A program made the position numbers and the translations under genes. Below the pieces are notes generated by a model. That model was not told the origin of the DNA, searched no databases, and saw nothing but the letters and a program-made list of their open reading frames with translations. A stretch of 60,618 bases of DNA, from contig CAYHTW010000002.1 in the NCBI GenBank assembly GCA_964360065.1, positions 68,251 to 128,868 of the forward strand, written 5' to 3'. This stretch comes from an uncultured Candidatus Saccharibacteria bacterium (GTDB lineage: Bacteria > Patescibacteriota > Minisyncoccia > UBA6257 > Colwellbacteraceae). Shown piece by piece: positions 28,861 through 60,618 of the stretch (within the stretch, counting starts at the first letter, position 1; each line of letters starts with the position of its first letter).

Positions 28861-28873
28861 ACTTTTTTGTTTG

Positions 28874-37650: not shown

Positions 37651-37672
37651 ATTTATTTTTTATTTTTCTTTG

Positions 37673-37754
37673 TGCCTCCAAGAGGATTTGAACCTCTAAC
37701 CCTTGCGGGACAGCGTTCTGAACGCTGCGCGTATGCCAGTTCCGCCATGGAGGC
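37673..37754 (-). tRNA. tRNA-Leu(CAG)
   Basis: GCCTCCA/TGGAGGC acceptor, anticodon arm CAGCG-TTCAGAA-CGCTG, long variable arm, T-arm AGAGG-TTCAAAT-CCTCT; CCA not encoded. Confidence 0.96.
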
Positions 37755-41847: not shown

Positions 41848-42347
41848 CAAAGTTTATTTTTCTTATATTCGAGCTTGTTTTTTAAATTGTTCATGAAAAG
41901 AATCTTTTCTTTTGCAGATTTCTTCAGTAATGTTGAGCATGTCTCTAAATAGGAGCTCATTACATATTTAAGCTTATTTTTCTTATATAGATATTTAACC
42001 AACGAGTAGAAATCCCCGTCGCTTGAAACAATTAGCGCCTTATCATAATTCGGATATTCAATCATGGCTTGTAAAACAAGATCGGCATCTACATTTCCCT
42101 TAACACTTCCTTTTCCATCCGGTAAAACTGGTTTAAATATCAGAATATATCCATATTTTTGCAGAGACGCATATAAACCCTGATTCTCCTGCACATAACC
42201 AATAAACAAAAATGCATTAGTAATCCCGTGAGTTTCTCTTAAATGTATACGAAATTTCTTAAAATCCAAATCCCAACCTAGGCTTTTAACACCCAAATTA
42301 AGATTTTGACTGTCTATAAATGCATAATTATTTTCTTTTGAATACAT
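41847..42347 (-). CDS. NYN domain (LabA/DUF88, PIN-like) protein
   Basis: AFIDSQNL, KGNVDADL, LIVSSDGDF; AT-richer than its neighbours. Confidence 0.9.
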   Translation of the reverse strand: MYSKENNYAFIDSQNLNLGVKSLGWDLDFKKFRIHLRETHGITNAFLFIGYVQENQGLYASLQKYGYILIFKPVLPDGKGSVKGNVDADLVLQAMIEYPNYDKALIVSSDGDFYSLVKYLYKKNKLKYVMSSYLETCSTLLKKSAKEKILFMNNLKNKLEYKKNKL

Positions 42348-42373
42348 AAATATCTGTAATTATAGCATTAAAT

Positions 42374-42429
42374 GAAAAAGCACCGCCCAAGGACAGAACC
42401 TTAAGAAGTGCTTTTTCGTGTGAATTCTA
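42374..42429 (-). ncRNA. Candidate ~55-nt small RNA or attenuator upstream of NYN gene
   Basis: Promoter TTGACT(42463-58)-16-TATAAT(42441-36) reads into a 10-bp stem GAAAAAGCAC/GTGCTTTTTC (42374-42417) ending in T5; separate TGcTATAAT (42367-59) before NYN. Confidence 0.35.
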
Positions 42430-42500
42430 TGTTGAATTATAGATTCTTTACCAATTAAGTCAAGCGACGGCTAGGCAGCCGGACATTATTGGCCAATGCG

Positions 42501-42536
42501 TAGGTCAATTAGGTTAATTAGAGCAATTAGGTCAAT
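42501..42536. repeat. 4 x 9-nt tandem repeat
   Basis: TAGGTCAAT TAGGTTAAT TAGAGCAAT TAGGTCAAT, just upstream of TTGACA at 42549. Confidence 0.85.
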
Positions 42537-42548
42537 TTGTTTCACGGT

Positions 42549-42578
42549 TTGACACTTTTGCCGATTAGTCGGTATTCT
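42549..42578 (+). promoter_or_regulatory. sigma70 promoter of wHTH gene with operator-like inverted repeat
   Basis: TTGACA-18-TATTCT-7-ATG; spacer contains TGCCGA-TTAG-TCGGTA. Confidence 0.65.
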
Positions 42579-43095
42579 CTTACCGATGGCCCTTGCCGAA
42601 AGACCCAACATACACGATCACACCCGCGAAATCTCTTTTGCCGTATTCCGTGTGGCTAAACTTATAGAGAATCCCAAGCTTAAAAAGGAACTTGAGGAAT
42701 CGGCAATTGAATTGGTTTCTAAGTGCGGCGAGATACCATATGTTCCTTATATTCCAGAGGGCGAGACTTTGCCGTATCTACCTTATATTGAGAAATTAGT
42801 GAATCTAGTGAAGCTTGCCGAGATAGTCGGCGAGGTTAAATCGGTAAACTCAAAAGTCCTTTTAAGGGAACTTGGGATACTTAAATCGGCAATCATAGGC
42901 TCACTCGGCAAAAAAGAGGACATTGACCTTGCCGAATCCTTTGCTCGCCCTGAGCCTGCCGAACGGACCGAATTACCATCTGTCGGCAGATTTTCATTGC
43001 CCCCATCAATTAAGCACGAAAAACCCAATGTTAATATTGCCATTCGGCAATCGGCAATCATAGCCTTTATAAGAGGATTGCCAAACGGTTGCCGA
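42558..43095. repeat. Cluster of TTGCCGA/TCGGCAA heptamers
   Basis: Exact copies at 42558, 42593, 42700, 42815, 42886, 42905, 42929, 43044, 43051, 43089; several more with one mismatch. Confidence 0.9.
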
Positions 43096-43251
43096 ATGAG
43101 GGATTTGCTCACTAAGTTCCCGGAAGTCAGCGAAAGAACCCTACGTAACGACCTTCAAGACCTCAATGCAGGAGGATTAGTAGAGAGACTTGGTAAAGGG
43201 GCATCCAGCTCATTTAGGGGTGTAACCAAGCATGAGATTATTGCGTTATAA
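42586..43251 (+). CDS. Putative regulator: N-terminal helical bundle plus C-terminal DeoR-like winged HTH
   Basis: C-terminus RQSAIIAFIR...MRDLLTKFPEVSERTLRNDLQDLNAGGLVERLG fits the DeoR-type HTH pattern. Confidence 0.72.
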   Translation: MALAERPNIHDHTREISFAVFRVAKLIENPKLKKELEESAIELVSKCGEIPYVPYIPEGETLPYLPYIEKLVNLVKLAEIVGEVKSVNSKVLLRELGILKSAIIGSLGKKEDIDLAESFARPEPAERTELPSVGRFSLPPSIKHEKPNVNIAIRQSAIIAFIRGLPNGCRMRDLLTKFPEVSERTLRNDLQDLNAGGLVERLGKGASSSFRGVTKHEIIAL

Positions 43252-43260
43252 TTACTGATG

Positions 43261-43574
43261 CGCTAGACTAAGGACTAGCGTATTGGCTTGAGTGAGGCTA
43301 GCCAAAACATCTTTTTGTTTACTCTTGCGATAACACGCAGGAGGGTTATGTCTCACTCGCCAAAAGCGAGTTTTTTGTTTATTTCGTCCTATTTTCAAAC
43401 TAGCGGAGGGGATACGAAACAAAACAAAACTCTTAACAAGCGACTAGGGTTATCTATGCATATCAGCTCGCCGCCTTAACCTCACAAATGGCAAAAGGCA
43501 GCTGGTCGATGATATAGACAGTGGATAATCTCCAGACAAAAATAATTCTGAATAAAAGATTTAATAAAATAAAA
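43261..43574 (+). promoter_or_regulatory. Long multi-hairpin leader/intergenic region
   Basis: Stems at 43261-80, 43283-305, 43322-43, 43355-71 (followed by a T tract), 43368-432; GGTCG at 43504. Confidence 0.5.
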
Positions 43575-46500
43575 ATGAGTAAATTTATCTCGAAAGTTGC
43601 TTCAGCTGGGCTTACTGCCATAACTGTTGTCTCTCTTTCAGGGTTTGCTATGCCTCTTGCCGCTGCTCAAACGAGCGCCGACATTCAGGCACAGATTACA
43701 GCCCTGTTAGCTCAGATCAACGCTTTGCAGGCTCAATTGGGCACAGGTACTTCTACTGGCGCCGCCTACACCTTCACTAACAACCTCACAGTTGGTTCTA
43801 AAGGTGCAGACGTAACTGCCTTGCAGAATTACCTAGTTTCAACTGGTCACTTCACCCTTTCTGGTGGCGCGACTGGTTATTTCGGTTCCATAACTAAAGC
43901 CGCTGTAGCCGCTTGGCAAGCCGCCAACGGTGTTTCACCGGCTGCTGGTTACTTCGGATCCATTTCCAGGGCTAAGTACGTTTCGGTTACCGGAGCTGTA
44001 GTCACCGTACCTACTACTCCGACTACTCCGACTACACCGACAACTCCAGCTGTTCCATCTTCTGGTGTAGCTGTAGCGCTATCTTCTGACACCCCGGGAG
44101 CGGCAACATTGCCTGACGGTTCGGCCTACAATAAGGTTACTAAATTGAATCTTACTGCTGGTGCGAGCGGTGGCGATGCTAAAGTTACCGGACTTCGATT
44201 AACAAGAACCGGCTTCAGCTTGAACTCTGATTTCACTGGAGTAATGGTTTTTGATGCTAACGGCAATCGTCATGGCAATGTTGTCACGATTAGTGAGAGT
44301 AAAGCCTTGATAATGTTTACAGCTGATCCTATTACTGTTCCGGCAGGTCAAACTGTCGCAGTAACGGTCCAAGTGAACATTGATGCCGCGCAAACCACGA
44401 ACGGTACATTCGCTTTTGGTGTCGCTGCACCATCCGATGTATTCGTAGCTGATTCTGCTGCTATTTCCGGAACATTCCCAATTAATGGCAATATTTTTAG
44501 CGTCATTAATGGTGCTAACACTCTAGGAGCGGTAGACATTGACGCAGTAACAATTTCTGCGACAGCGAGAACTGTTGACCTAAATAACTTGGATTACCAA
44601 ATTTCTAAATTTAGGTTCTACGAGACTGGAGGCAAGGAGGATATCAAAATTACCTCCCTTCGCTTCTACAACAACGGCAACACCACCGACGCCGATCTGG
44701 CTAACTTAAAGCTTAAGAACGACGCTACTGGTGAAGTCTTGGCAACGGTGGCTGCGACTACCGGCAAGTATGTAACATTTAATTTGTCGTCAGGGCTAAC
44801 AGTCTTAAAGGGTCAAAACAAAACAGTCGCAATTTCTGCTGATGTTGTGAACGGTTCCACTAGGACCGCTCAATTCATAATTCAGAACGACTACGACGTT
44901 TCAGCCGTTGGCGTTTCAACGGGTGGTGGCCTTTTGTCGACTCACGCAACGAACCTAGCTGGCGATACAGCTGCTGGGTACCCAGTTGGTGATTTAACGA
45001 CAACTTACAACTCAATTACTGTCAATTCAGGCAGTTTGACTGTTGCTAAGGACAGCTCTTCGCCTTCCGGCAATGTCAGCCAAGGCCAGAACAACGTTGT
45101 TCTCGGCTATTGGAAAGTTGAAGCTACCGGCGAAGACATTGAGCTCCAAAAAGCCGACTTCAGCATCACAGGTTCAAGTGTGGCTGCTGATTTCAGCGGT
45201 TCGGTAAGCTTGATGATTGGCGATACGACCATCTACAGTACATCTACTCTAGCAGGCTTACTTGACGATGATGCTGCTGGTCTTGACCAGGTTGCTTTGA
45301 GTAATTACTACCTCATAAAATCTGGCACAAGCGTCTTAGTGAAAATGGTTGCTAACGTTTCAAGTTCAGCCACCAATAACGTGACGCTTATCGGCAACTT
45401 CGGCGATGCCTACTACAAGAGGGTGTCGTCTAACAACTACGCATCAGCCTCTGACGATGCATTTGTCACGGCCAACACTTTGACGGTTTCTACCGCGGCT
45501 TTGACAGTTGCTAAGAACTCCTCATACGGAGATCAGAACGTTGTAGGCGGCGGCGCGTTGAACAAGATTGGTTCATACGTTTTCCAAGCTGGTTCAGCGG
45601 AAGGCGTCAACATCTCTTCAGTAAATGTTGATATGTCTGCCATAACTGGTATGACCAACATGAAGTTAAGGAAGGTTAATTCCGATGGTTCCGAGACTCA
45701 AATCGGTTCCACCGTGACTGCGCCTTCTACAACCGACGACGCTAACAGCTTCTCTGTAGGTGGAACATTAAATGTCCCAGCTTCTGGAACTGTTGTGGTG
45801 AACGTCTATGTTGATATGTCGTCCGCAGCCGTTACGGTTAATACCGACATCGACGCTGCTGACGTAACAGCTTCCGGCCTTTCGAGCGGCACGGCTTTGA
45901 GCGGCAATACTCCAACTGCCCAGGTGGTTGGTCAAACTATTACCGCGAGAGCTAGCGGCACGCTCTTGGTTGAAACTGATACTTCTACTCCGGTAGAGGC
46001 AGTTGTTCGCGCTTCGGAATCTAACCGTGAACTCTTGAAAGTTAAATTCACTTCGCAATACGAAGCCGTTAACTTGACCAAGTTGGTATTTGGCAGCCGA
46101 AGAGGCAATGCCAACCTGAGCTCGGTTTCATTGACTGCTGGCGCCGTAACCGTAACTACTACTCCAATAAACGGTATTGCCACCTTTAGCGGATTAACCT
46201 TACAGGTTGCGAAAGACAACAATTTAGTGGTGAGTGTAAAAGGTGCATTTACTACTTCCGGCACGATGATTTCAGCTGAAGACGTAAGATTAGGTCTTGA
46301 CTCATTAGAATCTACCGGCGTTTCATCGGGTTCAACCATCTACGAATTGGCGAGAACCACGACTGGTACTGCTGGAGACATTGCTGCTGACGTTGCTACC
46401 GCCGTAACTGTAGGCTCTACCGAGGGCTTCGCGGTTGGCGATGTGGTACAGATCAACACAGCGCAAGGTGTAAGCTCATTCACTGGTGTTACGACTGCCG

Positions 46501-47927
46501 TTGGCAGCGCGACATCTTTGACCATCCGTGGTCCTAAGAACTTAGCTGATTGCGCGGGTGCAACTTGTTACGTAACTAAGTTAGCAACTCGCGAAGCTGT
46601 TACTTCTAAGACCACTGCAGTTACAGTGACCGATGTCACCGCTATCGCGATTGATGTCACTTCAACTCGCGGTTTCGCGGTTGGTGATGTCGTTAGATTA
46701 GACGGCGAATCAGGCGCGACCGACGATGGTGGTTTCTACACGGTTACAGCTGTAACCGATGGCGACACCATGTCTGTTATCGGTCTCGGTGAAGTTACAG
46801 CTAGTCCGACATTCGGTACTACTGCGACTGACCGTGTAACTAGAATGGCGACAACGAGTTCAACTCAAGTGAGAGCGCTTTCTACTATTACCGCGGTCAC
46901 CGCTTCAGCTCTTGAAGTAAATTCAACCGTTGGTTTTGCCGCTGGTGACTTGATAGTGGTGAACTCCACTATAGCTGTTACAACGAGAGTGGCCAGAATT
47001 TACACTGTGGCGGCGGTAACCGATGCTGATACTCTCAGTGTTATTGGTTCTGAAGGTCAGGTGGCCATTCCAGTAAACAGCTGGGTGACTAAGCTTTCTA
47101 CTACTCGCACCACAACCACTAACTTGGTAACTGACGATCTAGTTGCTGACACTGCGGGAACAATTACCGTTGTTTCAACTGCTGGATACAAGGTTGGCGA
47201 TGTAGTGATGCTAAATAGCACTGTTGCGGTGCCGGCTGCCCAAGTTGACACCGTCTACGTGGTTAGCGCGGTGCCTTCCTCGACTACTATTACCTTGATA
47301 GGTGAGGCTGCCCAGACCAACATTCCGGTTGGTAGCTACCTAACTATCTTGGCTTCATCCACAGGCAACGGTAAGCCTTACACGGTTCACGATGTTGAGC
47401 CGGTAATTACCCTAAACTCAGCATCTCCTGGAGCTTCAGGCACAGTCTCTGGTTCTACGAACCAAATTGTGGTTGTGTTTGATGTTTTGGCTTCGGGCGA
47501 TGTAGCCCTCACGCTTAAGGATGTAACCCTTACCCGTGGCGGTAACATTGGCACTAGAGTTGCTGTTACAGCTCAACCAAAGGTGTATGACTACACTTCT
47601 GGTAGCTTAGGAACACTACTCGGTACCGGTGCTAACTGGTCAGGGACAGCGGCTGGCTCTACCTCATTAGTAACCTTCGACACTCCTTACTCCGTCACTG
47701 CCGGTCAATCATTGAAGTTGGCGGTAACCGTAGATACTTCTGCGGCCATAGCTAACGACACCTTCCAGGTGTACATCAATAACACTGGCGGTTTTGCAGG
47801 TTTGTTTGGAGGACTAAGCTGGTACTACGTAGCTACGTCTCCATCCCCTGGCACGGAACCGACGAATGCTGCTCCTTCTACTCTCGCCGATACCTATCCG
47901 GTCTTCGGCAACACCTTGAGATATTAA
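43575..47927 (+). CDS. Large secreted surface (S-layer-like) protein: signal, coiled coil, PG-binding-like domain, beta-rich domains, 4 inserted repeats
   Basis: Start MSKFISKV at 43575; SADIQAQITALLAQINALQAQL; GSKGADVTALQNYL..GYFGSITKAAVAAWQ; T/A/V/S/G-rich; four VxSTxG(F/Y)xxGD repeats. Confidence 0.75.
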   Translation: MSKFISKVASAGLTAITVVSLSGFAMPLAAAQTSADIQAQITALLAQINALQAQLGTGTSTGAAYTFTNNLTVGSKGADVTALQNYLVSTGHFTLSGGATGYFGSITKAAVAAWQAANGVSPAAGYFGSISRAKYVSVTGAVVTVPTTPTTPTTPTTPAVPSSGVAVALSSDTPGAATLPDGSAYNKVTKLNLTAGASGGDAKVTGLRLTRTGFSLNSDFTGVMVFDANGNRHGNVVTISESKALIMFTADPITVPAGQTVAVTVQVNIDAAQTTNGTFAFGVAAPSDVFVADSAAISGTFPINGNIFSVINGANTLGAVDIDAVTISATARTVDLNNLDYQISKFRFYETGGKEDIKITSLRFYNNGNTTDADLANLKLKNDATGEVLATVAATTGKYVTFNLSSGLTVLKGQNKTVAISADVVNGSTRTAQFIIQNDYDVSAVGVSTGGGLLSTHATNLAGDTAAGYPVGDLTTTYNSITVNSGSLTVAKDSSSPSGNVSQGQNNVVLGYWKVEATGEDIELQKADFSITGSSVAADFSGSVSLMIGDTTIYSTSTLAGLLDDDAAGLDQVALSNYYLIKSGTSVLVKMVANVSSSATNNVTLIGNFGDAYYKRVSSNNYASASDDAFVTANTLTVSTAALTVAKNSSYGDQNVVGGGALNKIGSYVFQAGSAEGVNISSVNVDMSAITGMTNMKLRKVNSDGSETQIGSTVTAPSTTDDANSFSVGGTLNVPASGTVVVNVYVDMSSAAVTVNTDIDAADVTASGLSSGTALSGNTPTAQVVGQTITARASGTLLVETDTSTPVEAVVRASESNRELLKVKFTSQYEAVNLTKLVFGSRRGNANLSSVSLTAGAVTVTTTPINGIATFSGLTLQVAKDNNLVVSVKGAFTTSGTMISAEDVRLGLDSLESTGVSSGSTIYELARTTTGTAGDIAADVATAVTVGSTEGFAVGDVVQINTAQGVSSFTGVTTAVGSATSLTIRGPKNLADCAGATCYVTKLATREAVTSKTTAVTVTDVTAIAIDVTSTRGFAVGDVVRLDGESGATDDGGFYTVTAVTDGDTMSVIGLGEVTASPTFGTTATDRVTRMATTSSTQVRALSTITAVTASALEVNSTVGFAAGDLIVVNSTIAVTTRVARIYTVAAVTDADTLSVIGSEGQVAIPVNSWVTKLSTTRTTTTNLVTDDLVADTAGTITVVSTAGYKVGDVVMLNSTVAVPAAQVDTVYVVSAVPSSTTITLIGEAAQTNIPVGSYLTILASSTGNGKPYTVHDVEPVITLNSASPGASGTVSGSTNQIVVVFDVLASGDVALTLKDVTLTRGGNIGTRVAVTAQPKVYDYTSGSLGTLLGTGANWSGTAAGSTSLVTFDTPYSVTAGQSLKLAVTVDTSAAIANDTFQVYINNTGGFAGLFGGLSWYYVATSPSPGTEPTNAAPSTLADTYPVFGNTLRY

Positions 47928-47943
47928 TCCTCGCTAGGATTAA

Positions 47944-47962
47944 CCCTGAGTTTATCGAAGGG
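47944..47962. repeat. REP-like short element
   Basis: CCCTGAGTTTATCGAAGGG between the surface gene stop and its terminator. Confidence 0.4.
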
Positions 47963-47997
47963 CTAATCTCTAAGGTTTAGTTAGAAGGCGTAAGTAA

Positions 47998-48032
47998 AAA
48001 AAACACCCCGGCTTGAGAGCGGGGTGTTTTTT
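47998..48032. terminator. Bidirectional intrinsic terminator
   Basis: AAAAAACACCCC-GGCTTGAGAGC-GGGGTGTTTTTT. Confidence 0.9.
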
Positions 48033-48065
48033 GTTGCTTATTAATGAGGGGATTATGAGTGATAC

Positions 48066-48114
48066 TTATCCACACCCTCGTATACATAGCGCTGGCGATG
48101 CTTTGTGCTATAAT
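48066..48114 (+). promoter_or_regulatory. Perfect DnaA box followed by extended -10 promoter
   Basis: TTATCCACA 48066-74; TGcTATAAT 48106-14; predicts a ~315-nt leader to ATG 48438. Confidence 0.6.
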
Positions 48115-48437
48115 AAAACGTAGTGAAAAGGTCGGTAATTATTGTCTCTGACTTGCCTCGCATAGCTTTAACGGCTAAGCGGGTATTATAGAGATAATAA
48201 GAATTCAATTCGCCCTCCTAAGTTTTTGAATAAAAAATTTAGGAAAGCAAACAACAAAATAATCAAAATTGTAAAAACAAAAACCAGGTAGTGACTTACC
48301 CTCTATATTTATAGAGTTGTGGCTACCATCTGGGAAAGCCGGTCGAGCTTACTTTGTTCTTACAAGTAAAATAAAAAAAGTCGATTCGCCTCCATCTTCT
48401 TTAACAAGATTAAATAAGGTGGTGGTAAAAATAAAAA

Positions 48438-50453: not shown

Positions 50454-50564
50454 ATCTTAACCAACTTTAAATTCCACCCCATTTTGTTCTCGTAAAAAGG
50501 TCGGATTCGTCTCGCCAGTCTACGGACTGGCGGGTAAGGTGGGGACAAAAAAACGAAAACAATA

Positions 50565-51728: not shown

Positions 51729-51788
51729 GCCCTCTTGTGGTGAGTCATATCGAATCCATTAGGTTTGTAATTTAAACTTAAATGTGGC

Positions 51789-51856
51789 ACGGTTTCATTA
51801 ATGAAACCGATGGAAAGTAATAATCTGCAAAAATCGCCCCTTCCAAAAGGGCGGTT
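51789..51856 (+). repeat. 68-bp direct repeat, copy 1 (20-bp palindrome plus terminator-like hairpin)
   Basis: ACGGTTTCATTAATGAAACCGATGGAAAGTAATAATCTGCAAAAATCGCCCCTTCCAAAAGGGCGGTT; here followed by a T tract. Confidence 0.95.
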
Positions 51857-51957
51857 TTTGTTTTAGTTCTGTCTTGTGGTGACTTGTCCTGAAGTTTCTC
51901 GAAAGAGCATAGCCGAACCATTTTGCATACTACTTATTAAAAGTTATAATGCGAGCC

Positions 51958-51975
51958 GGTTTCATTAATGAAACC
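51958..51975. repeat. Isolated 18-bp palindrome copy over a predicted transcription start
   Basis: GGTTTCATTAATGAAACC, 7 nt after TTGCAT-16-TATAAT (51923-51950). Confidence 0.9.
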
Positions 51976-52054
51976 AACGAATTGATGTTGAATTGATGCT
52001 CATTTTTTGAGTTTTTTGTTTGTTATTTTTATTGTCGTTTAGGCTCTCTATTGT

Positions 52055-52122
52055 ACGGTTTCATTAATGAAACCGATGGAAAGTAATAATCTGCAAAAAT
52101 CGCCCCTTCCAAAAGGGCGGTT
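52055..52122 (+). repeat. 68-bp direct repeat, copy 2
   Basis: Identical to copy 1. Confidence 0.95.
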
Positions 52123-52206
52123 GATGTTCGTCATTTGAGCTTGTTCAACATTGTCATCTAGAAGACAGTTCTATTAATGAAACCAAGGTGGTATAATTTA
52201 TATATT

Positions 52207-52587
52207 ATGAAAGTATCAAATAAAAAACTAACTGTGGTTTTAAGGAAACAGTCGTTGGAGAGATTATTAGATGAAATAAAGATGGTTAAAACTACTGCTG
52301 ACTTAGATAAGTTTTTTGGCAAGATTCTTACTAAAGACGAGAAAGAAATGATTTTAAGGAGAATAACCGTGGCGGATATGTTGGAGAGAAAGCTCAAATA
52401 TAGAGAAATAGAGGAATCTTTGAGTATCTCCCGTCTGACGATAAGCAAAGTTCGGGATATGCTTGCGAAAAGAGGTTATGGACGCAATCCAGGCAGAAAG
52501 AGAGTTTACTCCGGGGACGCGGATCATAAAAGGCGGAGACAAAAACCGCTTTTAGGTTATTACAAGGGAGCGAGGAGTATTATTTAG
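52207..52587 (+). CDS. TrpR/YerC-like helix-turn-helix protein
   Basis: ILTKDEKEMILRRITVADML...YREIEESLSISRLTISKV matches the TrpR/YerC pattern. Start set at ATG 52207 after TATAAT 52192-97; a 15/18 palindrome copy (52167-84) overlaps its promoter. Confidence 0.8.
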   Translation: MKVSNKKLTVVLRKQSLERLLDEIKMVKTTADLDKFFGKILTKDEKEMILRRITVADMLERKLKYREIEESLSISRLTISKVRDMLAKRGYGRNPGRKRVYSGDADHKRRRQKPLLGYYKGARSII

Positions 52588-52626
52588 ATTTATCTTGAGG
52601 TTTAATTGTCTAGTACTAGCTATTAG

Positions 52627-52694
52627 ACGGTTTCATTAATGAAACCGATGGAAAGTAATAATCTGCAAAAATCGCCCCTTCCAAAAGGGCGGTT
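52627..52694 (+). repeat. 68-bp direct repeat, copy 3
   Basis: Identical to copies 1 and 2. Confidence 0.95.
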
Positions 52695-52770
52695 TATCGC
52701 ATTATTGATGCAGTAGGCGGTTAAGGCCATCGCAAGACATTAAGTGTTAGTTATTCCGAGCTCTGCGAAG

Positions 52771-52790
52771 CCTGCCTACCGCTAGGCGGG
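52771..52790. repeat. Short GC-rich palindrome
   Basis: CCTGCCTA-CCGC-TAGGCGGG. Confidence 0.5.
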
Positions 52791-52894
52791 GCTGTTGATA
52801 ACTTTCATTATCATACTTGCAACAGTATGTTACTATATTTAGTAATAGGGCATTGTCGGATGCCGAGTTAATTTCGTTAATTTAAAAAATAATT

Positions 52895-55800
52895 ATGACG
52901 AGAAAAATTTTCACGTCGGCGAATATTAATATTATAAATAAGTCGTTAATTATATTCACAGCCTTAGCTGTGGTTTTGTGGTCAATAGGCGCAGGATTTT
53001 TTATTCCGGAGATCACGAGAGCAGCCGTTTCGCAAACAACTGCTCCGGCTGGTATGGCTGTAATGGGTCAGACCATCAAAGCGTCTTCTGTTGAAACTCC
53101 AGTCATAAAATTTCAGCTTACTGGCAATTCGGCCGATAACACAGTTACGCAGGTAACGGTTACCGTTGAAAGTACGGCCGGTCCGACTGTTTCGGGTGAT
53201 TTCGCCAGTTTGAAAGTATTTAAATCGGCGGACGGTATTTTTGACGGCGGCGATACTCTAGTCGGAACTCAAACAACAGTGAATGTTGGTTCGGCGACTA
53301 ACATTACTGTTGTTGAACCCCCATTGGGAGCTGCCGCATCTTGGTATATAGTAACCGCCGCAACTTCCGCAGGCGCGGGTAATGCCCATGCTTTTAAAGT
53401 TACTATGGCCGCGAACACAGCTGTCACAGTTGGCGGCGCTGGCGCAGGCTTGATTACCAGTTCAGCTCTTGCCGCTGGTTCAGTTCAGGCTTTAACTACT
53501 GATACAGTTGCCCCGACTCTTAACGTTAGTATGACTGGTCCGGCGACCGGTTCAACCAATGTTCCCGTGAGCACGTTCGTACACATGGGTTTTTCGGAAA
53601 GCCTTGACCAGTCAACTCTTATACCTGCTAACATCACTTTTACAAGCGGAGGCAGTCCGGTAGGCGCGGGTATCAAGCCTTTCCCTGATGGTTTTGATCT
53701 TACAACTTCAAACGCGCCAACATACACTACAGGAACTTCTTTTTCTAAGGCACTAAACACATCAACCGCTTTTTATCATATGTCAGGCACGAATGCCATT
53801 AATCCACAAGGAGCTTATGTAGCTCCGACACTTGGCGATATAGTTTTCTTTCAAAAAGATACTTTCCCGATGGATGTGGGAGTGATTACGAATGCTACGC
53901 TGGCCTCTGGCACGTTTGGCGTTAACGATTTCAATCTATTCCAAGGCCAACAAATCACTAAGTTCGGTACTATAGCGGCAACTGGTCTTCAAGGGTCAGC
54001 TACTACTCTCGTGGTGGGGGATATTGTTGTCGCGAATGTTTCGGCTAATCCGACCGATATGCGTTATAACTGGCATATTGTAACTGCTGGCACTGCCGTG
54101 AACGATGCGGCGCTTCGTTTTGATAGCGTAACAGCTGCGGCTCCAACCTTTGTTACTACGCCCAGCTCAAGGATATCTCGTATTACTCCTACCGCGACTA
54201 CGACAGTAAACGTAAGTAGCCAACTCTCCTCCATGACCTTTGTGGCGGGAGACCTCGTTTTCGCCAAAGTTACCGCAGGTGCTGACAATCTGAATCAGTA
54301 TGCGTGGCATACAGTAACAACTGGCGAGACCATCTCCGGCACGGTGCCGAGCGTTCTACGTCTTGATTGCGGCGCTACTTGTACGGTGCCCGTTACTTTT
54401 ACCCCTTCAACCCAGGTTAGCAAACTTTCTGCCGCCGCAACCGGCGCGGTGACCGATACCACTACCGCTCTGTCCTTCGGCGATATCGTGATGGCGAAAA
54501 CCACCTTGAATGCGTCAAATAACGGTAACTATAACTTCCATATGGTTAGCGCGGGCGCGACCGGCGCTTCGGCTGCTGGTTTACGTTTTGACAATGCTTC
54601 GACGAACCTTAGTCCTTCGGTGACTTATGTAGCAACCGCGGGAGTTGGTGTCAAGGACTCCGCGGGAAACCCATTGGCCGCCCCAGCAACTATCAGCTTT
54701 ACGACTGGTTCAAACACCGGTACCGTTACCACGCCTCCGTTTGTTCAATCTTCGACTCCACAAGGAGGAAGTGTGACTTTCCCGATCGGCGTGCCGATCT
54801 CGCTGCAGTTTTCGGTGCCGATGGCTAACACAGGCGGAGGGTCAGTACTCTCCAGTTCTAATATAGGACTTTTCACCAATGTTAATGGCGCTCCTGGCGT
54901 CGCTGTTACGGCCGCGAACGGCTACGATTCTGTCACCAATACTGTAACTGTTACTCCCAGCGCCGTTCTCACTGCGGCTACGAGTTTTATAGTTAAAATT
55001 TTTGGTAGTACGACTAGCAGTACTGGCACGTTTGTGTCGCCGTATCAATTATTCTTCACGACTGCCTCCGGCGCGGCTGACACGGCGAGACCAACAATTA
55101 CGGGAGTTTTCCCGTCTCCTGGAGCAACAGGCGTTGTGCGTCCAGTGGGAGATATTAGTATCGGTTTTTCGGAAGATATGAACGCGGCGACCATTAGCGG
55201 CACCACGATAACAATCAATAACAGCATTACAGGGACCGTTACTTATAATGCTCAGCAACGCGCCGCGCACTTTGCGCCAAATATTCCGTTAGCGCAAAAC
55301 ACCGCTTATACAGTAACGGTGGGTACGGCGGTTACGGACCTTTCTGGTAATGGCTTAGCGGGTAATGGTGGCGTGGCTAACGCGGTAACGATCGCGGGGA
55401 GTTCGTCCGCTTATGTCTTTAGTTTTACCACGGCAAATACGGCTAACGAGACTGTAAAACCTACGGTTCAATCCGCGAATGCCGACAATTTCGGTGTAGC
55501 TGTAACTTTTTCAGAACCAATTAAATCCGGCGGCGGACCGGCTGCGGCTGATAATATTGCTAACTACACATTAGAGAGTCCCGTTGGAACTTCAATTTCC
55601 CTGGGTGGGAAAACCGTAACCTATGATGGTCCAACGATGACGGCAAGGATCACCGGGCTATCATTACAGAATGGGGCTTTGTTCAAAATAACGGCTAGTA
55701 ACATTATGCAAGACTTGGCTGGTAATAGTATGGAAACAGTCTCAAGTGCTAATGTTTCCCAAGCCACAGTCGCGAGTTCCACTATGACCGGAGGCCTTCT

Positions 55801-58800
55801 TGGTCCCGGCGGCGGCATGATGCAAACCGGAGGTATGATGGGCATGAGCCCGATTCGAGTTAGTCCTATGAACCGATTAGCTGGGGCAACTTCTGGTTAC
55901 TTCGTGGAAATGCCGGTTACTACATCCATTCCTTTGGGTGCCTCAATTGTGCTTACTTTCCCCACGGGGTTTGATGTAACAAACGCCGCGGCTATGACTG
56001 CTGTCACGGAGAGTCCGGCTAATAGTGATATTAATGGACCGGCTACCGGTGTTGTTACTATTGCCTCAACTGCTGTTAATATTTCAGCTAGAACTATCAC
56101 GATAGTTACCGGCGGCGCGGAAACAGGGGCCAATACTTTCTTGCGTTTTGACCTAAAGACAATTGTAAACTCAACTGTTCCTAATAGCGCTGGCTATACA
56201 GTAGACATTAAGACGAAAACCGCGGCCAATGTCATCCTAGAAACGCAAACCTCAAGTTTCTTCTTTCTAGGTCAGGCGGGAACGAATACTCTTACTGTTA
56301 CTGTATTTAACGATAATGGCGAGGGTGGCGTTACCGCAGGAGATGGTATTAAGAGTGGTACCGAGCCGGGAATCGCAAGCGCCACAGTTTTCCTCTTTAG
56401 TATGGCTGTCGGTGGCCAAAGTGGAACCACTGATGTAAACGGTGTGGCTACATTCCCAAGCCTTGTAAATGGGACTGACTATATGGTTGGTATTGAACCG
56501 TCAAGCGTTACCGCGGGAGGGTTTTCCTTCAATTCCGCGCATCAACCGCTGTCAATTTCAGGCAACACCGCAAAGAGCTTCGGTTTAAGAGCGGCTCCTC
56601 ACACCATTGCAGGTACGATCACGGGTCCTATAAATACCAAAGTTGATGTATTTGCGAGCGGCTTCAATGGCTACACATCGGTCACAGTAGACACTGGCGC
56701 AGGTGGGAGCGTGGCTTACAGCTTGCCGGCGCAGGCGAGTACCACCTATCGAGTGGGAGTTTCGCCTTCTATGCCTAGGACCTTTATGCAACCAGGATCA
56801 GCCATGCCTCCGCCGCCAACTTTCACCTTTATGCCTCCTCCGATGATTGAAGTGGCTGTCGCGGCCGCTAACGTGACGGGCAAGAACTTTGCCCTTACCG
56901 CGACTGATAAAACTATCGCTGGCACAGTGAAGGATTCTGCCGGAGTCGGGATAAATAAAGCCCAGGTTTTTGCCAGGCCGGTTCAGACTTCTAGTGATGG
57001 TACTAACACAGGTTTCGGCACGGGTGGAGAAACTGATACCCAGGGCAACTTTAGCTTACGTGTAACTCCTGGAGTGTATCTTGTTGGCGTCTTTAAGCCC
57101 GGTATGCCTAATGTCCAAGAAAAGCAGATTACAGTTGCCACAGTTAATACTCCTGCGACACTGGCCTTTGTAATTGATGCCTCAACTAGCCTTACGATTA
57201 GCGGCAAGGTGACTGATGATGCGGGGAACGCCGTTGCTTACGCTGGCGTAGGTGGCAGAAGGGTAACATCCACTACCAATACGACAAGTTTAGGCGGTGA
57301 TTCTGGCAACTTTGTTGGCGGCCCGACTGATGCTAACGGTGCTTATACTCTTTATGTAACCGCTGGCACATGGGTGATAGAAGCTTATGCTCCGGGGTTT
57401 GGAAGGTTAGGTACTAAAACCGTTACTGTTGTTGCTGGTACCAGCTTGACGGGTCAGGACTTCTCGGCGGCGACTTTGAGCGTTGGTACGATTACTGGTC
57501 AGGCTACTAAAGCGACCGTAGCTCAACAAGGAGTTATGGTACGCGCAGATGGTGCTAATGGAGGCAACATGGCTATTACGGATGTAAGCGGTAATTACAC
57601 TTTGAAAGTTCCCGCAGGCACCGGTTATACGATTAATTGTTATTTCCCGGGCGTGGGTGAAGCTACTCCACTTACGGGTGTCACGGTGACATCTGGTGCC
57701 ACGAGTTCCGGAAATAATTGTTCGTTAGCGGCTCCAATTACCGTTACAGTGAACGTTACGAATGGCACAAGTGGGATTACTGGCGCGTTTGTGGACGCAA
57801 GGGACACGAACGGCCGGGGCAATGGTACGAATAGTTATACGACTTCTGGGGCGAATGCTGTCTATGTGTTAACGCTCTCACCAGGAACCTACACTGTGCG
57901 CGCGGGACATCCTTCGTACGGAATGCTTGGTTCAACCTTAAGCGTTAGTACCACACAGACTATTACTTACACGGCTGCGGCTGGCGCGACATTCGCGGTG
58001 ACTGGCACAGCTACTGGTGGTGGGGTTGCTTTAAGCGGCGCTTGGGTATCTGTTACTGGTACGTCTACCGGTCAGACAAATATTATTCATGTTGGTGGAC
58101 AGACTGCCTCTAACGGTACGTTTTCTATCAGCGTTCCAAACGGTACTTATAAGGTTCGTGTCGACAAACCGGGATATAAATCTCCTACTGAAACAGGAGT
58201 TACGGTCGCGGGCGCTACTATTTCGGTTGGCACGATTGCTCTCTCGGCCGCAACACTTTCTATTACCGGTAAGGCTACTCTTGATGCTGTGGGCGTAAGT
58301 GGCGCCTTTGTGGACGCGACTGATGGAGCAGGAGGGTTTACAGTTGATCAAACTGATGCGAATGGCAATTATACTCTCGCGGTTAACGCTGGGAACTGGA
58401 CAGTCCGGGCTCACAGCCAGGGTTACGATGGTGGCCCGCTCTTAGTCGCTGTTGGCGCAACAAACGTGAGTGGCCAAGACGTTGCTCTAAGCGCCATATC
58501 TGGTTTCACAGTGCAGGCCGAAAAACAGGAGACAGTTACTCCGAGTTCTGGTGGTTTCTTCACTAATACAAACATCGGCGCTGGTTTCAAGTTGAATATT
58601 CCAGCGAACGCTTTGGGTACCGGCGCAAACGCCAGCACTGTTAAAACCCAAATTAATACTGCTATGCCTAACCCACCGACTGGTTCCATCTTAAAGAAGA
58701 ACGCGGTATCAATCTCGGCGGTAGATGCTGCTGGCGCCCTGATTAAGACCTTGAGTGATGCTGTGACAGTGGTTATTCCTTACACGGAAAGCGATATCCC

Positions 58801-59827
58801 AAGTGGTATTGCCGAAACAAGTTTGGTAATCGGTGTTTGGAACGAGGCTACCTCAAACTACGACACCCTGCCTACCACAGTGGACACAACCGCGAATACA
58901 CTCACGGCTACCGTGTCTCACTTCTCTGATTTTGCTCCATTGGTGCCTACCAATCCAACAGCTACGGCAACCCCGACCGGATTCACGGTTGGAGGTGCAA
59001 CATCGAGTACACTACTGCTTAGTTGGACTTTGGTATCCGGGGCGAGTGGTTACGATATATATAGAAGTGCTACAACGAGTGGCACTTATGCCCGTTTGGG
59101 TTCGGAACCAACAGTTTCTAGCGGATCAACAGTTACCTACACCGATACAGGTCTTAGCGCATACACCGCTTATTACTACAAGATCTCTTCGGTGAGTACG
59201 GGAAATGAATCAGCAGCGACTGAATACTCTTCGGGTACGACTCTAAACACTGCAAGTTCTGGTGGTGGTGGTAGCAGCAGTGGTGGTGGAGGTGGCGGAT
59301 ACGCAGCGGTATCAACTCCTGCCGCGACCACTACTGTCACCCCCGTAGTTCCAGTAACTTCAGCAGTACCGACTACAACTCCTGCGGTTCCAGCGACCCC
59401 TGTAACTCCAGCCGTCTTGAAAGCTTTACCATACCCGTCGGCCAAAACAACTGTGGAAATGCAGGCTAACCTAACTGTCTTACTAGGAAACTTAGCAGCG
59501 TTGCAGGCACAACAGAAAGCTGCAACTCTCGCAACACCAGTCACTCCATCAACAGACGCATCAGTGCCTCCAGCTGGTTCTTACAAAGTAAGCATTGCTC
59601 CTAATTCCAAAGGGAATGATGTTACCGCCCTGCAGAACTTCTTGAAGTCACAAGGCGCGGATGTCTATCCCGAAGGGCTTGTTACTGGTTACTTCGGCAA
59701 CTTAACCAAGGCCGCTGTTGGCAGATTCCAGATTAAGCAGGGAATTGTTACCAGTACGAGTGATGTAGGTTACGGCAATGTAGGTCCAAAGACTCGTGCC
59801 AAAATCAACTCATTATTAGGTTTATAA
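52895..59827 (+). CDS. Giant (2310 aa) multi-domain surface protein: Big_5-like Ig domains, carboxypeptidase-regulatory-like repeats, FN3, C-terminal PG-binding-like module
   Basis: DT.AP/RP...F(S)E motifs x4, ISGKVTD..G..TD.NG.YTL repeats, FN3 LLLSW..GYDIYRS..YTDTGL..YYYKI, C-terminus nearly matching 50565..51728. Confidence 0.8.
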   Translation: MTRKIFTSANINIINKSLIIFTALAVVLWSIGAGFFIPEITRAAVSQTTAPAGMAVMGQTIKASSVETPVIKFQLTGNSADNTVTQVTVTVESTAGPTVSGDFASLKVFKSADGIFDGGDTLVGTQTTVNVGSATNITVVEPPLGAAASWYIVTAATSAGAGNAHAFKVTMAANTAVTVGGAGAGLITSSALAAGSVQALTTDTVAPTLNVSMTGPATGSTNVPVSTFVHMGFSESLDQSTLIPANITFTSGGSPVGAGIKPFPDGFDLTTSNAPTYTTGTSFSKALNTSTAFYHMSGTNAINPQGAYVAPTLGDIVFFQKDTFPMDVGVITNATLASGTFGVNDFNLFQGQQITKFGTIAATGLQGSATTLVVGDIVVANVSANPTDMRYNWHIVTAGTAVNDAALRFDSVTAAAPTFVTTPSSRISRITPTATTTVNVSSQLSSMTFVAGDLVFAKVTAGADNLNQYAWHTVTTGETISGTVPSVLRLDCGATCTVPVTFTPSTQVSKLSAAATGAVTDTTTALSFGDIVMAKTTLNASNNGNYNFHMVSAGATGASAAGLRFDNASTNLSPSVTYVATAGVGVKDSAGNPLAAPATISFTTGSNTGTVTTPPFVQSSTPQGGSVTFPIGVPISLQFSVPMANTGGGSVLSSSNIGLFTNVNGAPGVAVTAANGYDSVTNTVTVTPSAVLTAATSFIVKIFGSTTSSTGTFVSPYQLFFTTASGAADTARPTITGVFPSPGATGVVRPVGDISIGFSEDMNAATISGTTITINNSITGTVTYNAQQRAAHFAPNIPLAQNTAYTVTVGTAVTDLSGNGLAGNGGVANAVTIAGSSSAYVFSFTTANTANETVKPTVQSANADNFGVAVTFSEPIKSGGGPAAADNIANYTLESPVGTSISLGGKTVTYDGPTMTARITGLSLQNGALFKITASNIMQDLAGNSMETVSSANVSQATVASSTMTGGLLGPGGGMMQTGGMMGMSPIRVSPMNRLAGATSGYFVEMPVTTSIPLGASIVLTFPTGFDVTNAAAMTAVTESPANSDINGPATGVVTIASTAVNISARTITIVTGGAETGANTFLRFDLKTIVNSTVPNSAGYTVDIKTKTAANVILETQTSSFFFLGQAGTNTLTVTVFNDNGEGGVTAGDGIKSGTEPGIASATVFLFSMAVGGQSGTTDVNGVATFPSLVNGTDYMVGIEPSSVTAGGFSFNSAHQPLSISGNTAKSFGLRAAPHTIAGTITGPINTKVDVFASGFNGYTSVTVDTGAGGSVAYSLPAQASTTYRVGVSPSMPRTFMQPGSAMPPPPTFTFMPPPMIEVAVAAANVTGKNFALTATDKTIAGTVKDSAGVGINKAQVFARPVQTSSDGTNTGFGTGGETDTQGNFSLRVTPGVYLVGVFKPGMPNVQEKQITVATVNTPATLAFVIDASTSLTISGKVTDDAGNAVAYAGVGGRRVTSTTNTTSLGGDSGNFVGGPTDANGAYTLYVTAGTWVIEAYAPGFGRLGTKTVTVVAGTSLTGQDFSAATLSVGTITGQATKATVAQQGVMVRADGANGGNMAITDVSGNYTLKVPAGTGYTINCYFPGVGEATPLTGVTVTSGATSSGNNCSLAAPITVTVNVTNGTSGITGAFVDARDTNGRGNGTNSYTTSGANAVYVLTLSPGTYTVRAGHPSYGMLGSTLSVSTTQTITYTAAAGATFAVTGTATGGGVALSGAWVSVTGTSTGQTNIIHVGGQTASNGTFSISVPNGTYKVRVDKPGYKSPTETGVTVAGATISVGTIALSAATLSITGKATLDAVGVSGAFVDATDGAGGFTVDQTDANGNYTLAVNAGNWTVRAHSQGYDGGPLLVAVGATNVSGQDVALSAISGFTVQAEKQETVTPSSGGFFTNTNIGAGFKLNIPANALGTGANASTVKTQINTAMPNPPTGSILKKNAVSISAVDAAGALIKTLSDAVTVVIPYTESDIPSGIAETSLVIGVWNEATSNYDTLPTTVDTTANTLTATVSHFSDFAPLVPTNPTATATPTGFTVGGATSSTLLLSWTLVSGASGYDIYRSATTSGTYARLGSEPTVSSGSTVTYTDTGLSAYTAYYYKISSVSTGNESAATEYSSGTTLNTASSGGGGSSSGGGGGGYAAVSTPAATTTVTPVVPVTSAVPTTTPAVPATPVTPAVLKALPYPSAKTTVEMQANLTVLLGNLAALQAQQKAATLATPVTPSTDASVPPAGSYKVSIAPNSKGNDVTALQNFLKSQGADVYPEGLVTGYFGNLTKAAVGRFQIKQGIVTSTSDVGYGNVGPKTRAKINSLLGL

Positions 59828-59842
59828 CTAAACTTGATTAAC

Positions 59843-59868
59843 AAAAAACCCGCTCAAGCGGGTTTTTT
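59843..59868. terminator. Bidirectional intrinsic terminator
   Basis: AAAAAACCCGC-TCAA-GCGGGTTTTTT. Confidence 0.9.
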
Positions 59869-60014
59869 GCTTGTAGATAACTTAGGTATTGTTGTCTATT
59901 AATGATATGCTATAATTTTTTCATACCCAGCTAGCAAAACTGCGATTTGATTAATTCAAGTTATCTTGGTTTAATAATTGGGCAAGAAAAAATAAAAGTC
60001 AAAATAAAAACATT

Positions 60015-60407
60015 ATGTCTAAAAAAATAAAAATCATACTTTTAGTATTAGCGTTGGTTGTGGTCGGTGGGTCAATCTTTATCGCCACTTTGTCAGTATC
60101 TAAGCCAGATGCTTTGCGTAGCGCTTTTAACAGCGCCTTTAGTAAACCCTATTCCGTTGTCTATCTTACAACTGGAGAAATATATGTTGGCCATCTTTCC
60201 ACTTTCCCTAAACTCGTCCTAACGGATTCTTATATTTTGCAAGTAGCGACTGACTCCAAGGATCCCGCGAAAAAGACTTTCCAGCTTGCGCCGCTTAAAG
60301 AGTCCCTATGGTCACCAGAGAGAATCTATCTGAATAATGACCAGGTAATCTTTACCGCCCCAGTTAGCGCCGACAGCCAGGTAGCCAAAACTCTAAATAA
60401 AAAGTAG
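60015..60407 (+). CDS. Membrane-anchored hypothetical protein (small beta/Sm-like domain)
   Basis: N-terminal TM, YSVVYLTTGEIYVGHL..LTDSYILQ. Confidence 0.7.
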   Translation: MSKKIKIILLVLALVVVGGSIFIATLSVSKPDALRSAFNSAFSKPYSVVYLTTGEIYVGHLSTFPKLVLTDSYILQVATDSKDPAKKTFQLAPLKESLWSPERIYLNNDQVIFTAPVSADSQVAKTLNKK

Positions 60408-60445
60408 TAATTTGCCGCTAATATAGCGAGCAATCCCAGGTCGTC

Positions 60446-60454
60446 TTATCCACA
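60446..60454 (+). promoter_or_regulatory. Perfect DnaA box
   Basis: TTATCCACA, 41 nt upstream of the last ORF. Confidence 0.5.
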
Positions 60455-60495
60455 GTTAGTATATTTAGTAACTAGTTTGTTACAATTAACTAACA

Positions 60496-60618
60496 ATGCA
60501 AATAAAAAATAAGTTACTAAAATTTAGTACATCAGTTCTTCTAGCCCTAGTAGTTTCTCTCTTCAGTATCGGCACAGTCTCGGCTGCGTTGACGATTGAC
60601 ACGACAACGATCTCTAGC
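60496..60618 (+). CDS. N-terminal fragment of a paralog of the 48438 adhesin (truncated by window end)
   Basis: MQIKNKLLKFSTSVLLALVVSLFSIGTVSAALTIDTTTISS versus MTQIKNNLTK...SASAALTLNATTVSS. Confidence 0.75.
   Translation, partial: MQIKNKLLKFSTSVLLALVVSLFSIGTVSAALTIDTTTISS

Follow-up and report, generated by a model that had tools for sequence, protein, structure and literature searches.

A probable peptidoglycan-anchored surface island of a groundwater CPR/Patescibacteria bacterium, with a conserved regulator and surface gene pair and an autonomous TrpR-like cassette

We analyzed a 60,618-nucleotide (nt) stretch of DNA (hereafter the window; contig CAYHTW010000002.1, positions 68,251 to 128,868) from a Hainich groundwater metagenome contig (0.1-µm filter), in which eight genes, g1 to g8, run on the + strand from 42586 to the window end. 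On balance, we regard this locus as a peptidoglycan-anchored surface island of a Paceibacteria-type bacterium of the Candidate Phyla Radiation (CPR/Patescibacteria), in which a conserved g1-g2 pair is joined by a variable tail of paralogues and by an autonomous g5 cassette, and whose repeated DNA sites would be bound by g1 and g5. The island would comprise three layers: a family-wide pair of a winged helix-turn-helix (wHTH) regulator and the main envelope-layer candidate (g1 and g2), a variable tail made of the secreted paralogues g3 and g8, the anchor-sharing g4 and g6 and the membrane-anchored g7, and a TrpR/HisR-like cassette (g5) bracketed by 18-bp palindromes. The genes, with protein lengths in amino acids (aa), are as follows.

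42586-43251, + strand: g1, 221-aa wHTH protein
43521/43575-47927, + strand: g2, 1450 aa from the ATG at 43575
48438-50453, + strand: g3, 671-aa secreted Gly/Thr/Ala repeat protein
50565-51728, + strand: g4, 387-aa secreted PG_binding_1 protein
52177/52207-52587, + strand: g5, TrpR-like helix-turn-helix (HTH) protein, 126 aa from the ATG at 52207
52895-59827, + strand: g6, 2310-aa secreted giant protein
60015-60407, + strand: g7, 130 aa, single N-terminal membrane helix
60496 to window end, + strand: g8, g3-like secreted repeat protein of which the window includes only the 5' part

Signal peptides and an Ala/Gly/Thr/Ser/Val content of 51 to 71% in g2, g3, g4, g6, and g8 confirm the description, given in a first-pass annotation of this DNA, of eight co-oriented genes with five secreted low-complexity proteins among them. 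Its observation that two HTH genes each sit on a repeated motif of their own also holds, with a TTGCCG(A) array at g1 and palindromes at g5. Comparison contigs and genomes are labeled L001 to L097; in L001, a contig of the same species that is 99.7% identical to the window, g8 reaches at least 365 aa.

The promoter and coding sequence (CDS) of g1 carry 12 TTGCCG(A/T) cores within 540 bp (42558..43097), seven on the + strand and five on the - strand, with the consensus TTGCCGAWT; occurrence on both strands places the signal in duplex DNA, not in the mRNA. Ten of the 29 TTGCCGA matches in the window fall inside 42558-43095 (the shuffle mean being 8.3 for the whole window), as do seven of the nine matches to the TTGCCGAWT 9-mer, and none of the latter lies upstream of g2 to g8. 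Core density is 16.5 per kb in g1 against at most 3.3 per kb in every other open reading frame (ORF) of the window. Shuffling of synonymous codons, which preserves the g1 protein sequence and its codon usage, left 1.7±1.2 sites in the CDS compared with the 11 present, a count reached by 0 of 2000 shuffled versions. This test was positive in 8 of 8 orthologues, the initial seven being L006, L023, and L090 to L094, and an intragenic array was found in 12 of 12 g1-family genes (the window and 11 orthologues), including the more distant L095, L096, and L097. Across these genes the motif changes together with the predicted recognition helix of the protein: RNDLQ pairs with TTGCCGAWT, the RNDIQ of Colwellbacteria with TTGCCGTTT, RYDLQ with TTGCCGGAT (16 sites, 18.5 per kb), and RRIIQ with TGGCCGAG (8 sites, 8.8 per kb compared with 1.1 per kb outside). 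The most persuasive evidence that the motif represents the putative binding site of g1 itself comes from this co-variation, and, as the motif both travels and co-varies with the gene from genome to genome, the earlier suggestion that g1 is self-targeting was borne out. Our literature search found no description of a family-wide intragenic site array of the g1 type. The likeness of the motif to the Spo0A 0A box (TGNCGAA) was judged to be coincidental. Two features lie directly upstream of the g1 start.

42549..42578, + strand: predicted promoter-like site TTGACA-18-TATTCT of g1, with the motif TTGCCGATT in its spacer, ending 7 nt before the ATG
42497..42535, + strand: 9-mer AGGTCAATT in four tandem copies, just 5' of the -35 of the g1 promoter

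With a promoter ending this close to the ATG, the g1 mRNA would be nearly leaderless. The position of TTGCCGATT between the predicted -35 and -10 gives g1 a cognate site over its own core promoter, as expected of an autoregulated gene, and the same layout, a -35 followed by the motif in the spacer, recurs in L093, L006, L091, and L097. The tandem 9-mers are a second motif beside the array; similar repeats, namely AGGTCAATTAG, are found upstream of the g1 orthologues in L094 and L023.

Next to this array lies the gene to which g1 is most consistently tied. Among the ten genomes besides the window whose neighborhood was fetched, nine have a g1-family gene followed by a g2 orthologue and the tenth has the two adjacent, and the linkage of HTH and surface genes on which the first-pass annotation had staked its case was therefore present, for g1, in every genome with context. 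The backbone around the pair is common to the window and to L023, L090, L091, L092, L093, and L094, the two genes are divergently oriented in the Colwellbacteria genome L006, and in L096 and L097 they stand on a different (ClpB) backbone. In L093 the pair is followed by housekeeping genes only and the remainder of the island is not there. L090 repeats much of the island order, with genes for a g3-like protein of 584 aa, a PG-binding protein of 403 aa and a g6-like protein of 2311 aa; of the proposed order wHTH, S-layer, fiber, TrpR, the g1-g2 pair and the succession of g3-like, g4-like PG-binding and g6-like genes are thus retained there, but the TrpR-like slot differs, as a palindrome after the g4-like gene is accompanied by a 75-aa ORF and a HicA toxin gene in the place of g5 (L090 19611-20180). 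The g2 protein has a signal peptide, a coiled coil, an N-terminal PG_binding_1 domain and a TTPTTP linker, together with a beta-rich repeat region of about 1250 aa, and its orthologues (BLASTP E 1e-9 to 4e-152) share this plan of signal peptide, QAQINAL-type coiled coil, PG-binding domain, Thr/Pro linker and repeat body. It is the leading candidate for the main layer of the envelope, possibly an S-layer. Two blocks occupy the g1-g2 spacer.

43322..43377, + strand: two hairpins after g1, the second of which (43355-43371), with a T-run, is the g1 terminator; block kept in relatives
43443..43538, + strand: candidate promoter/leader in a conserved stretch ahead of g2, containing the stem CAGCTCGCC (43464-43472) / GGCAGCTG (43497-43504)

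The reverse complement of the first block was seen in L023. The second, of about 100 nt, is kept in five genomes although the g2 proteins are only 28 to 45% identical, and its stem shows one compensatory pair. Three further perfect palindromes of at least 16 bp were noted in the window, at 45088-45107, 46742-46761, and 12276-12295, two of them inside g2 (CAGAACAACGTTGTTCTG and GGTTACAGCTGTAACC).

In the AlphaFold2 (AF2) model of g1 (predicted local distance difference test [pLDDT] 79), a four-helix N-domain (aa 9-108) is joined by a disordered linker (122-146), whose length differs between homologues, to a C-terminal winged helix (149-212). The winged helix returns only sub-threshold Pfam matches, to HxlR and to HTH_DeoR (18.2 bits against a cut-off of 21). 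These weak matches are the likeness of g1 to DeoR regulators, under which name its homologues are filed at NCBI; DeoR proteins, however, combine an N-terminal HTH with a C-terminal DeoRC sugar-phosphate sensor, whereas the HTH of g1 is C-terminal, its N-domain is a four-helix bundle and no DeoRC match was found in Pfam, which sets it apart from that family. The predicted fold of residues 9-108 weakly matches four-helix bundles of the S23/23S rRNA IVP/Avd (bAvd) type in Foldseek (2gsc, 2rld, and 4dwl; E 7.7e-4; template modeling [TM] score 0.64 to 0.73 on target 2gsc), from which g1 differs in having its bundle fused to a wHTH with no match at the sequence level in Pfam. Two stand-alone 23S_rRNA_IVP/bAvd four-helix-bundle genes adjoin the g1 orthologue in L094 (6933-7280 and 9543-9908). 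The idea of a diversity-generating retroelement, raised by the Avd-like fold, was rejected, with no reverse transcriptase in the locus. A profile search at E<=1e-30 recovered 311 clusters at 50% identity, and g1 therefore belongs to a large, unnamed family.

We infer from these patterns that g1 may oligomerize via its N-domain while its winged helices bind the 9-mer TTGCCGAWT, so that the site in the spacer of its own promoter would bring about autorepression, and that the roughly ten intragenic sites, in both orientations, would assemble a multi-site nucleoprotein complex 0.3 to 1 kb upstream of g2 that probably sets or insulates g2 expression. A more far-reaching version, which we put forward only tentatively, is that g1 is the founder of a large, previously undescribed, CPR-wide class of regulators (four-helix oligomerization domain, flexible linker and winged helix) that coat their own gene body through 8 to 16 lineage-specific sites, an operator array that would serve the neighboring major surface gene of S-layer type as a dosage-sensing switch or as an insulator, in a pairing kept across Paceibacteria and Colwellbacteria despite inversions and backbone changes.

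The second HTH gene of the island is embedded in repeats of another kind. The palindrome GGTTTCATTAATGAAACC occurs in four perfect copies and one degenerate copy, all within 51791-52646 around g5, compared with 0.02 expected in the window, and three of the palindromes sit in a 78-nt triplicated unit, D2, in which 26 nt separate the palindrome from a terminator hairpin.

51782..51859, no strand assigned: D2 copy 1, with palindrome 51791-51808 and a bidirectional terminator hairpin (51835-51853) that ends g4
51922..51975, + strand: promoter-like TTTGCA-17-TATAAT and, 8 nt further on, palindrome 51958-51975
52048..52125, no strand assigned: D2 copy 2, with palindrome 52057-52074 and a hairpin without a downstream T-run
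52167-52184, + strand: degenerate palindrome AGTTCTATTAATGAAACC, followed after 4 nt by the extended -10 TGGTATAAT (52189-52197); putative proximal operator over the -35
52620..52697, no strand assigned: D2 copy 3 (palindrome 52629-52646 with a hairpin), situated 42 nt past the stop codon of g5 and about 250 nt ahead of the start of g6

D2 copy 1 folds with a free energy (dG) of -28.6 and a z of -5.2, and the element at 51922..51975 may be a distal promoter of g5 whose operator would lie near +1. The longer g5 ORF, from 52177, starts at an ATG that is itself part of the palindrome; the real start is most likely 52207, which gives 126 aa as in homologues. An 18-bp palindrome accompanies the g5-family gene in 13 of 14 lineages (40 to 88% identity; the exception is L018), and in all ten lineages with both flanks in the fetched DNA it lies on both (L012, L017, and L020 show one only), at -34 to -76 nt relative to the start codon or +3 to +61 nt relative to the stop. 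The palindrome sequence is lineage specific (e.g., GCTTTCATTAATGAAAGC, GGTTTCTTTAAAGAAACC, GCGCCTATTAATAGGCGC, GGTACTATTAATAGTACC, ACTCTCATTTATGAGAGT, and GGTCTCCTTAGGGAGACC), and its core tracks the recognition helix TIS[K/N]V across lineages. The spacing is fixed: the proximal palindrome is followed after 4 to 6 nt by a TGn-extended -10, as in TGGTATAAT, and by a leader of 6 to 13 nt, an architecture that was also found in L011, L027, L046, L069, L006, and L013. Such spacing and such a short leader imply that the palindrome covers the -35 and lies outside the transcript, and the copy 4 nt upstream of the predicted extended -10 of g5 is where a site for autoregulation would be expected. Imperfect copies show no G.U bias (7 GT, 5 AC, 14 other), which favors recognition of DNA over recognition of RNA. 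Like that of g1, the self-targeting claimed for g5 is upheld, its palindromes traveling and co-varying with the gene across genomes.

An attempt to define a g5 regulon by scanning metagenomes for the exact 18-mer failed: of 67 loci, only 10 had a TrpR-like gene by tblastn, and the remaining ones were mostly chance matches in coding regions or unrelated terminator stems. An unrelated repeat, tcaagaaaa-GGTTTCATTAATGAAACC-ttttcttga...ctgaggcaatgtgccgaagaatc, was noted in the metagenome contigs L061, L072, L074, L083, and L087. D2-like units (palindrome, spacer, CGCCCCTTCCAAAAGGGCGG hairpin and an extra inserted hairpin) occur at L056 2085-2190 and 8125, L024 52, and L063 6136, in a genome with no TrpR-like gene within 6 kb and in which a second palindrome adjoins a tRNA gene; they could represent additional targets or a small mobile repeat.

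The g5 protein belongs to the TrpR family by PF01371 (48.2 bits over residues 25-98 of the 136-aa ORF, the cut-off being 27), falls just short of YerC/YecD (HisR) as a close outlier (TIGR02531, 40.9 against 42.2 bits), and has YerC-like relatives in the Protein Data Bank (3kor, 3g1c, and 3frw). The TrpR family, including YerC/HisR, uses lineage-specific palindromic operators of about 20 bp (PMC9413887), and the lineage-specific 18-bp palindrome at g5 agrees with such a TrpR/HisR operator (18 to 20 bp) at the sequence level. From TrpR and HisR (YerC) themselves, g5 differs by an extra, invariant, basic C-terminal tail (RGYGRNPxRKR...PLLGYYKGAxSII) and by putative operators that bracket its own gene and not his or trp genes; no trp, his or other amino-acid biosynthesis genes adjoin any g5-family locus, where the neighbors are surface, envelope or housekeeping genes. 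A tRNA-synt_1b gene of TrpRS/TyrRS size is present in the conserved backbone (L006 11116-12096 and L090 2745-3728), and the location of the Colwellbacteria copy 0.7 kb from a TrpR-like gene is probably coincidental. We infer that a g5 dimer would bind GGTTTCATTAATGAAACC, that the degenerate proximal copy over the -35 of the extended -10 promoter would mediate autorepression, and that the perfect palindromes up- and downstream of g5 would act as auxiliary operators, possibly through looping or as a roadblock towards g6.

The genomic contexts of g5 suggest that this cassette is autonomous and autoregulated and only recently part of the island. Orthologues at 56% identity or less adjoin RNase J/TrpRS, glycerate kinase, ClpB/HtrA, FtsW, SecA or glycosyltransferases, and also LTD/PKD proteins or (with SecA) a pilin-like protein, contexts that are mutually unrelated and in which the palindromes are nonetheless kept. 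Only close relatives (at least 80% identity) hold g5 in the island, in the order anchor-module gene (g6- or g4-like), palindrome, g5, palindrome, g7, so that g7 lies directly 3' of the TrpR-like gene. Recombination between repeated units of anchor module and terminator probably moved g5 within the island. The two regulators had been described as dedicated to the surface genes; this description applies, by synteny, to the link of g1 with g2, but not to g5, given its distant orthologues among unrelated neighbors.

The tail of the island is held together by shared modules. A module of about 450 nt, encoding a C-terminal coiled coil and a PG_binding_1 anchor, is common to g4 (51280-51728) and g6 (59376-59827) at 74 to 80% DNA identity, and g6 further contains three Big_5 and five CarboxypepD_reg domains as well as fn3 in Pfam (its orthologue in L090 has 2311 aa). 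The paralogues g3 and g8 are more elusive: g3, of which 71% is Ala/Gly/Thr/Ser/Val, has no Pfam or PHROG match, and its AF2 model (15 sequences) is of low confidence and unusable (pLDDT 46), with only a beta periodicity of about 10 residues. Its homologues are weak and partial, mostly 770- to 900-aa proteins on 33- to 47-kb contigs (P0247-P0269), one of which has a K1-lyase_C tailspike-type C-terminal domain; no g3-like protein was found in phage GenBank records or PHROGs, and these weak matches may be phage fibers that resemble host repeat proteins. The intergenic elements of the tail are listed below.

47996..48033, no strand assigned: bidirectional terminator after g2
48066..48210, + strand: DnaA box (48066-48074), extended -10 TGCTATAAT (48106-48114) and leader with an 11-bp stem, upstream of g3
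59843..59916, + strand: g6 terminator (59848-59868) and extended -10 TGCTATAAT (59908-59916) of a predicted promoter ahead of g7
60446..60454, + strand: perfect DnaA box at a distance of 42 nt from the start of g8

Terminators made of a hairpin and a T-run stand 3' of g1 (43355-43377), g2 (48004-48032), g4 (51835-51860), and g6 (59848-59868), the T-run 3' of g5 is weak, and no canonical terminator was found 3' of g7 or of g3, where the hairpin (50513-50532) has no T-run; the insulation of each large gene by a terminator, as first described, is accordingly seen for g2, g4, and g6, but not for g3. The block upstream of g3 (48060-48210) is about 95% identical over some 150 nt of noncoding DNA to L094 15650-15795 although the flanking proteins are 35 to 45% and the g3 proteins about 35% identical, and its inner hairpin carries a compensatory change, which suggests strong constraint (on RNA or promoter) or recent lateral exchange. 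Five perfect DnaA boxes occur in the 60.6-kb window, the two intergenic ones being those upstream of g3 (at about -51 from the predicted start site) and of g8, and the g3-like genes of L090 and L094 likewise have single boxes upstream. The leader that each large gene was said to possess is in part supported by the conserved blocks ahead of g2 and g3, but no Rfam family matched 42300-53000 at the gathering threshold or even at E<=1, and AAAAGGTCG was rejected as a shared leader motif, being not enriched (16 matches against 20 expected). We treat the DnaA boxes and the leader blocks as leads, not as demonstrations.

Several observations weigh against the reading of the locus as an island with self-binding regulators. 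None of the RNA sequencing runs carries g2 or the locus, which was matched in DNA runs only. The g1-g2 intergenic region of the window has no g1 motif and relatives show sporadic single cores only, so that it is synteny that argues for g2 being under g1 control. The conserved residues FAVFRV, RQSAI, and GCRM fall at some of the array positions, such that part of the array conservation could be inherited, and synonymous-codon shuffling controls for amino-acid sequence and codon usage only. Oligomerization through the N-domain is an assumption, as the likeness to Avd-like bundles is weak and no PF05635 match was found in Pfam at E<=0.01. For g5, palindrome variants within L011 and L016 keep perfect symmetry by paired changes, which selection for a hairpin would fit too, and units of palindrome and hairpin lie far from any TrpR-like gene in L056 and L024.

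Three other explanations have to be set against this reading. The first-pass annotation had proposed one coordinated programme, in which wHTH protein, TrpR-like protein, DnaA and RNA leaders jointly control lattice, fibers and giant adhesin on host attachment. The genes are indeed clustered and co-oriented, L090, L091, and L094 share g1-g2 and some of the gene order 3' of it, close relatives hold g5 beside anchor-module genes and g7, a TrpR-type palindrome lies between g1 and g2 in L023, single DnaA boxes stand 5' of g3-like genes in three genomes (counting the window), and conserved leader blocks precede g2 and g3. Neither TTGCCGAWT nor the palindrome, however, was found at the promoters of g2, g3, g4, g7, or g8 in the window, the sole palindrome near g6 is the downstream copy of g5 itself, distant g5 orthologues retain their palindromes amid unrelated neighbors, L093 has only housekeeping genes after g1-g2, and the RNA runs are without the locus. 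Of the programme as proposed, the g1-g2 link stands, by synteny, and a single scheme that also draws in DnaA boxes and leaders might be imagined but appears improbable.

We likewise consider it unlikely that the g1 array is a chromosome-structural element (centromere-like, nucleoid-organizing, or a relic or secondary iteron-type origin in an initiator gene) and that g1-g2 is plain conserved synteny. The gene O of phage lambda contains the ori-lambda iterons and parS lies within spo0J/parB; with 10 to 16 sites in both orientations inside the gene of their presumed binder, the g1 array recalls both. The locus also lies about 41 kb from dnaA, the succession of oligomerization domain, flexible linker and DNA-binding domain is a layout of the H-NS/Lsr2/Rok type, and the g2 promoter is without a g1 site. 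Unlike lambda O and spo0J/parB, g1 is a conserved chromosomal gene without Rep or ParB domains, and its short sites, of 8 to 9 bp, face either way and stand at irregular intervals throughout the gene and its promoter. No sign of ParB, Rep or an AT-rich unwinding feature was found, the site in the promoter spacer fits ordinary autorepression, and the adjacency of g1 and g2 outlasts both the local inversion in Colwellbacteria and a full change of backbone (the ClpB context of L096 and L097), which points to a functional link rather than inertia. Least likely, and to our minds very doubtful, is that the palindromes and D2 units are RNA or single-stranded DNA hairpins (terminator, stabilizer, or of the repetitive extragenic palindrome type) and not g5 operators: folding of each D2 unit yields two stable hairpins, copy 1 is a terminator in both directions, within-genome variants remain symmetric, D2-like units occur away from TrpR-like genes and many unrelated matches of the 18-mer are simple terminator stems, but the proximal copy falls outside the transcript, the palindrome core co-varies with the g5-family recognition helix across 14 lineages, imperfect copies show no wobble bias, and TrpR-family proteins use operators of exactly this kind (PMC9413887).

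Beyond the island, its genes abut a conserved backbone (holin_4_2 <- iPGM <- NYN). The dnaA gene (222-1631, - strand) was identified by its C-terminal domain IV motif, and DnaA boxes cluster on both sides of it (66-369 and 1645), so the window begins in the origin region, about 41 kb from the start of the island. A transfer-messenger RNA (tmRNA) gene lies at 28871-29191 (- strand; tag ATQRVAVPSFALA) and a tRNA-Leu(CAG) gene at 37672-37754 (- strand). Long antisense ORFs, rich in Pro/Val/Ala and of up to 378 aa, run through g3 (48932-50068, - strand), g2 (45932-46339, - strand) and g4 (50696-51160, - strand) and were rejected as genes, being composition shadows of the G/A/T-rich genes opposite; gene callers placed similar antisense calls over g8 in L001.

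Cell-wall-protein clusters are familiar from monoderm bacteria, such as slpA/cwp of Clostridioides difficile and sap-eag, with PagR, of Bacillus anthracis. These clusters resemble the island described here in grouping secreted surface proteins with one common wall-anchoring module, in having one dominant large protein, and in having small HTH regulators nearby or acting on them. They differ in their anchor, which is CWB2 or SLH as opposed to the coiled coil with PG_binding_1 of the island, where a lattice is no more than a candidate feature, and in that the pair of regulator and surface gene is, in this CPR lineage, kept family-wide.

Regulators are very scarce in CPR/Patescibacteria, genetics is lacking, and it is through the envelope that these bacteria meet their hosts. 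Here, we describe a family of at least 311 clusters (at 50% identity) that is tied to the probable main wall-anchored surface protein, and as the candidate binding motif of g1 can be read from its own gene, the system offers a testable entry point. The intragenic array would represent strong selection at the DNA level overriding codon choice in a protein-coding gene, and the TrpR-like cassette may represent an amino-acid-repressor fold repurposed in organisms without those pathways. Of all the elements of the island, the family-wide, co-varying intragenic g1 array beside an S-layer-type gene is in our view the most interesting.

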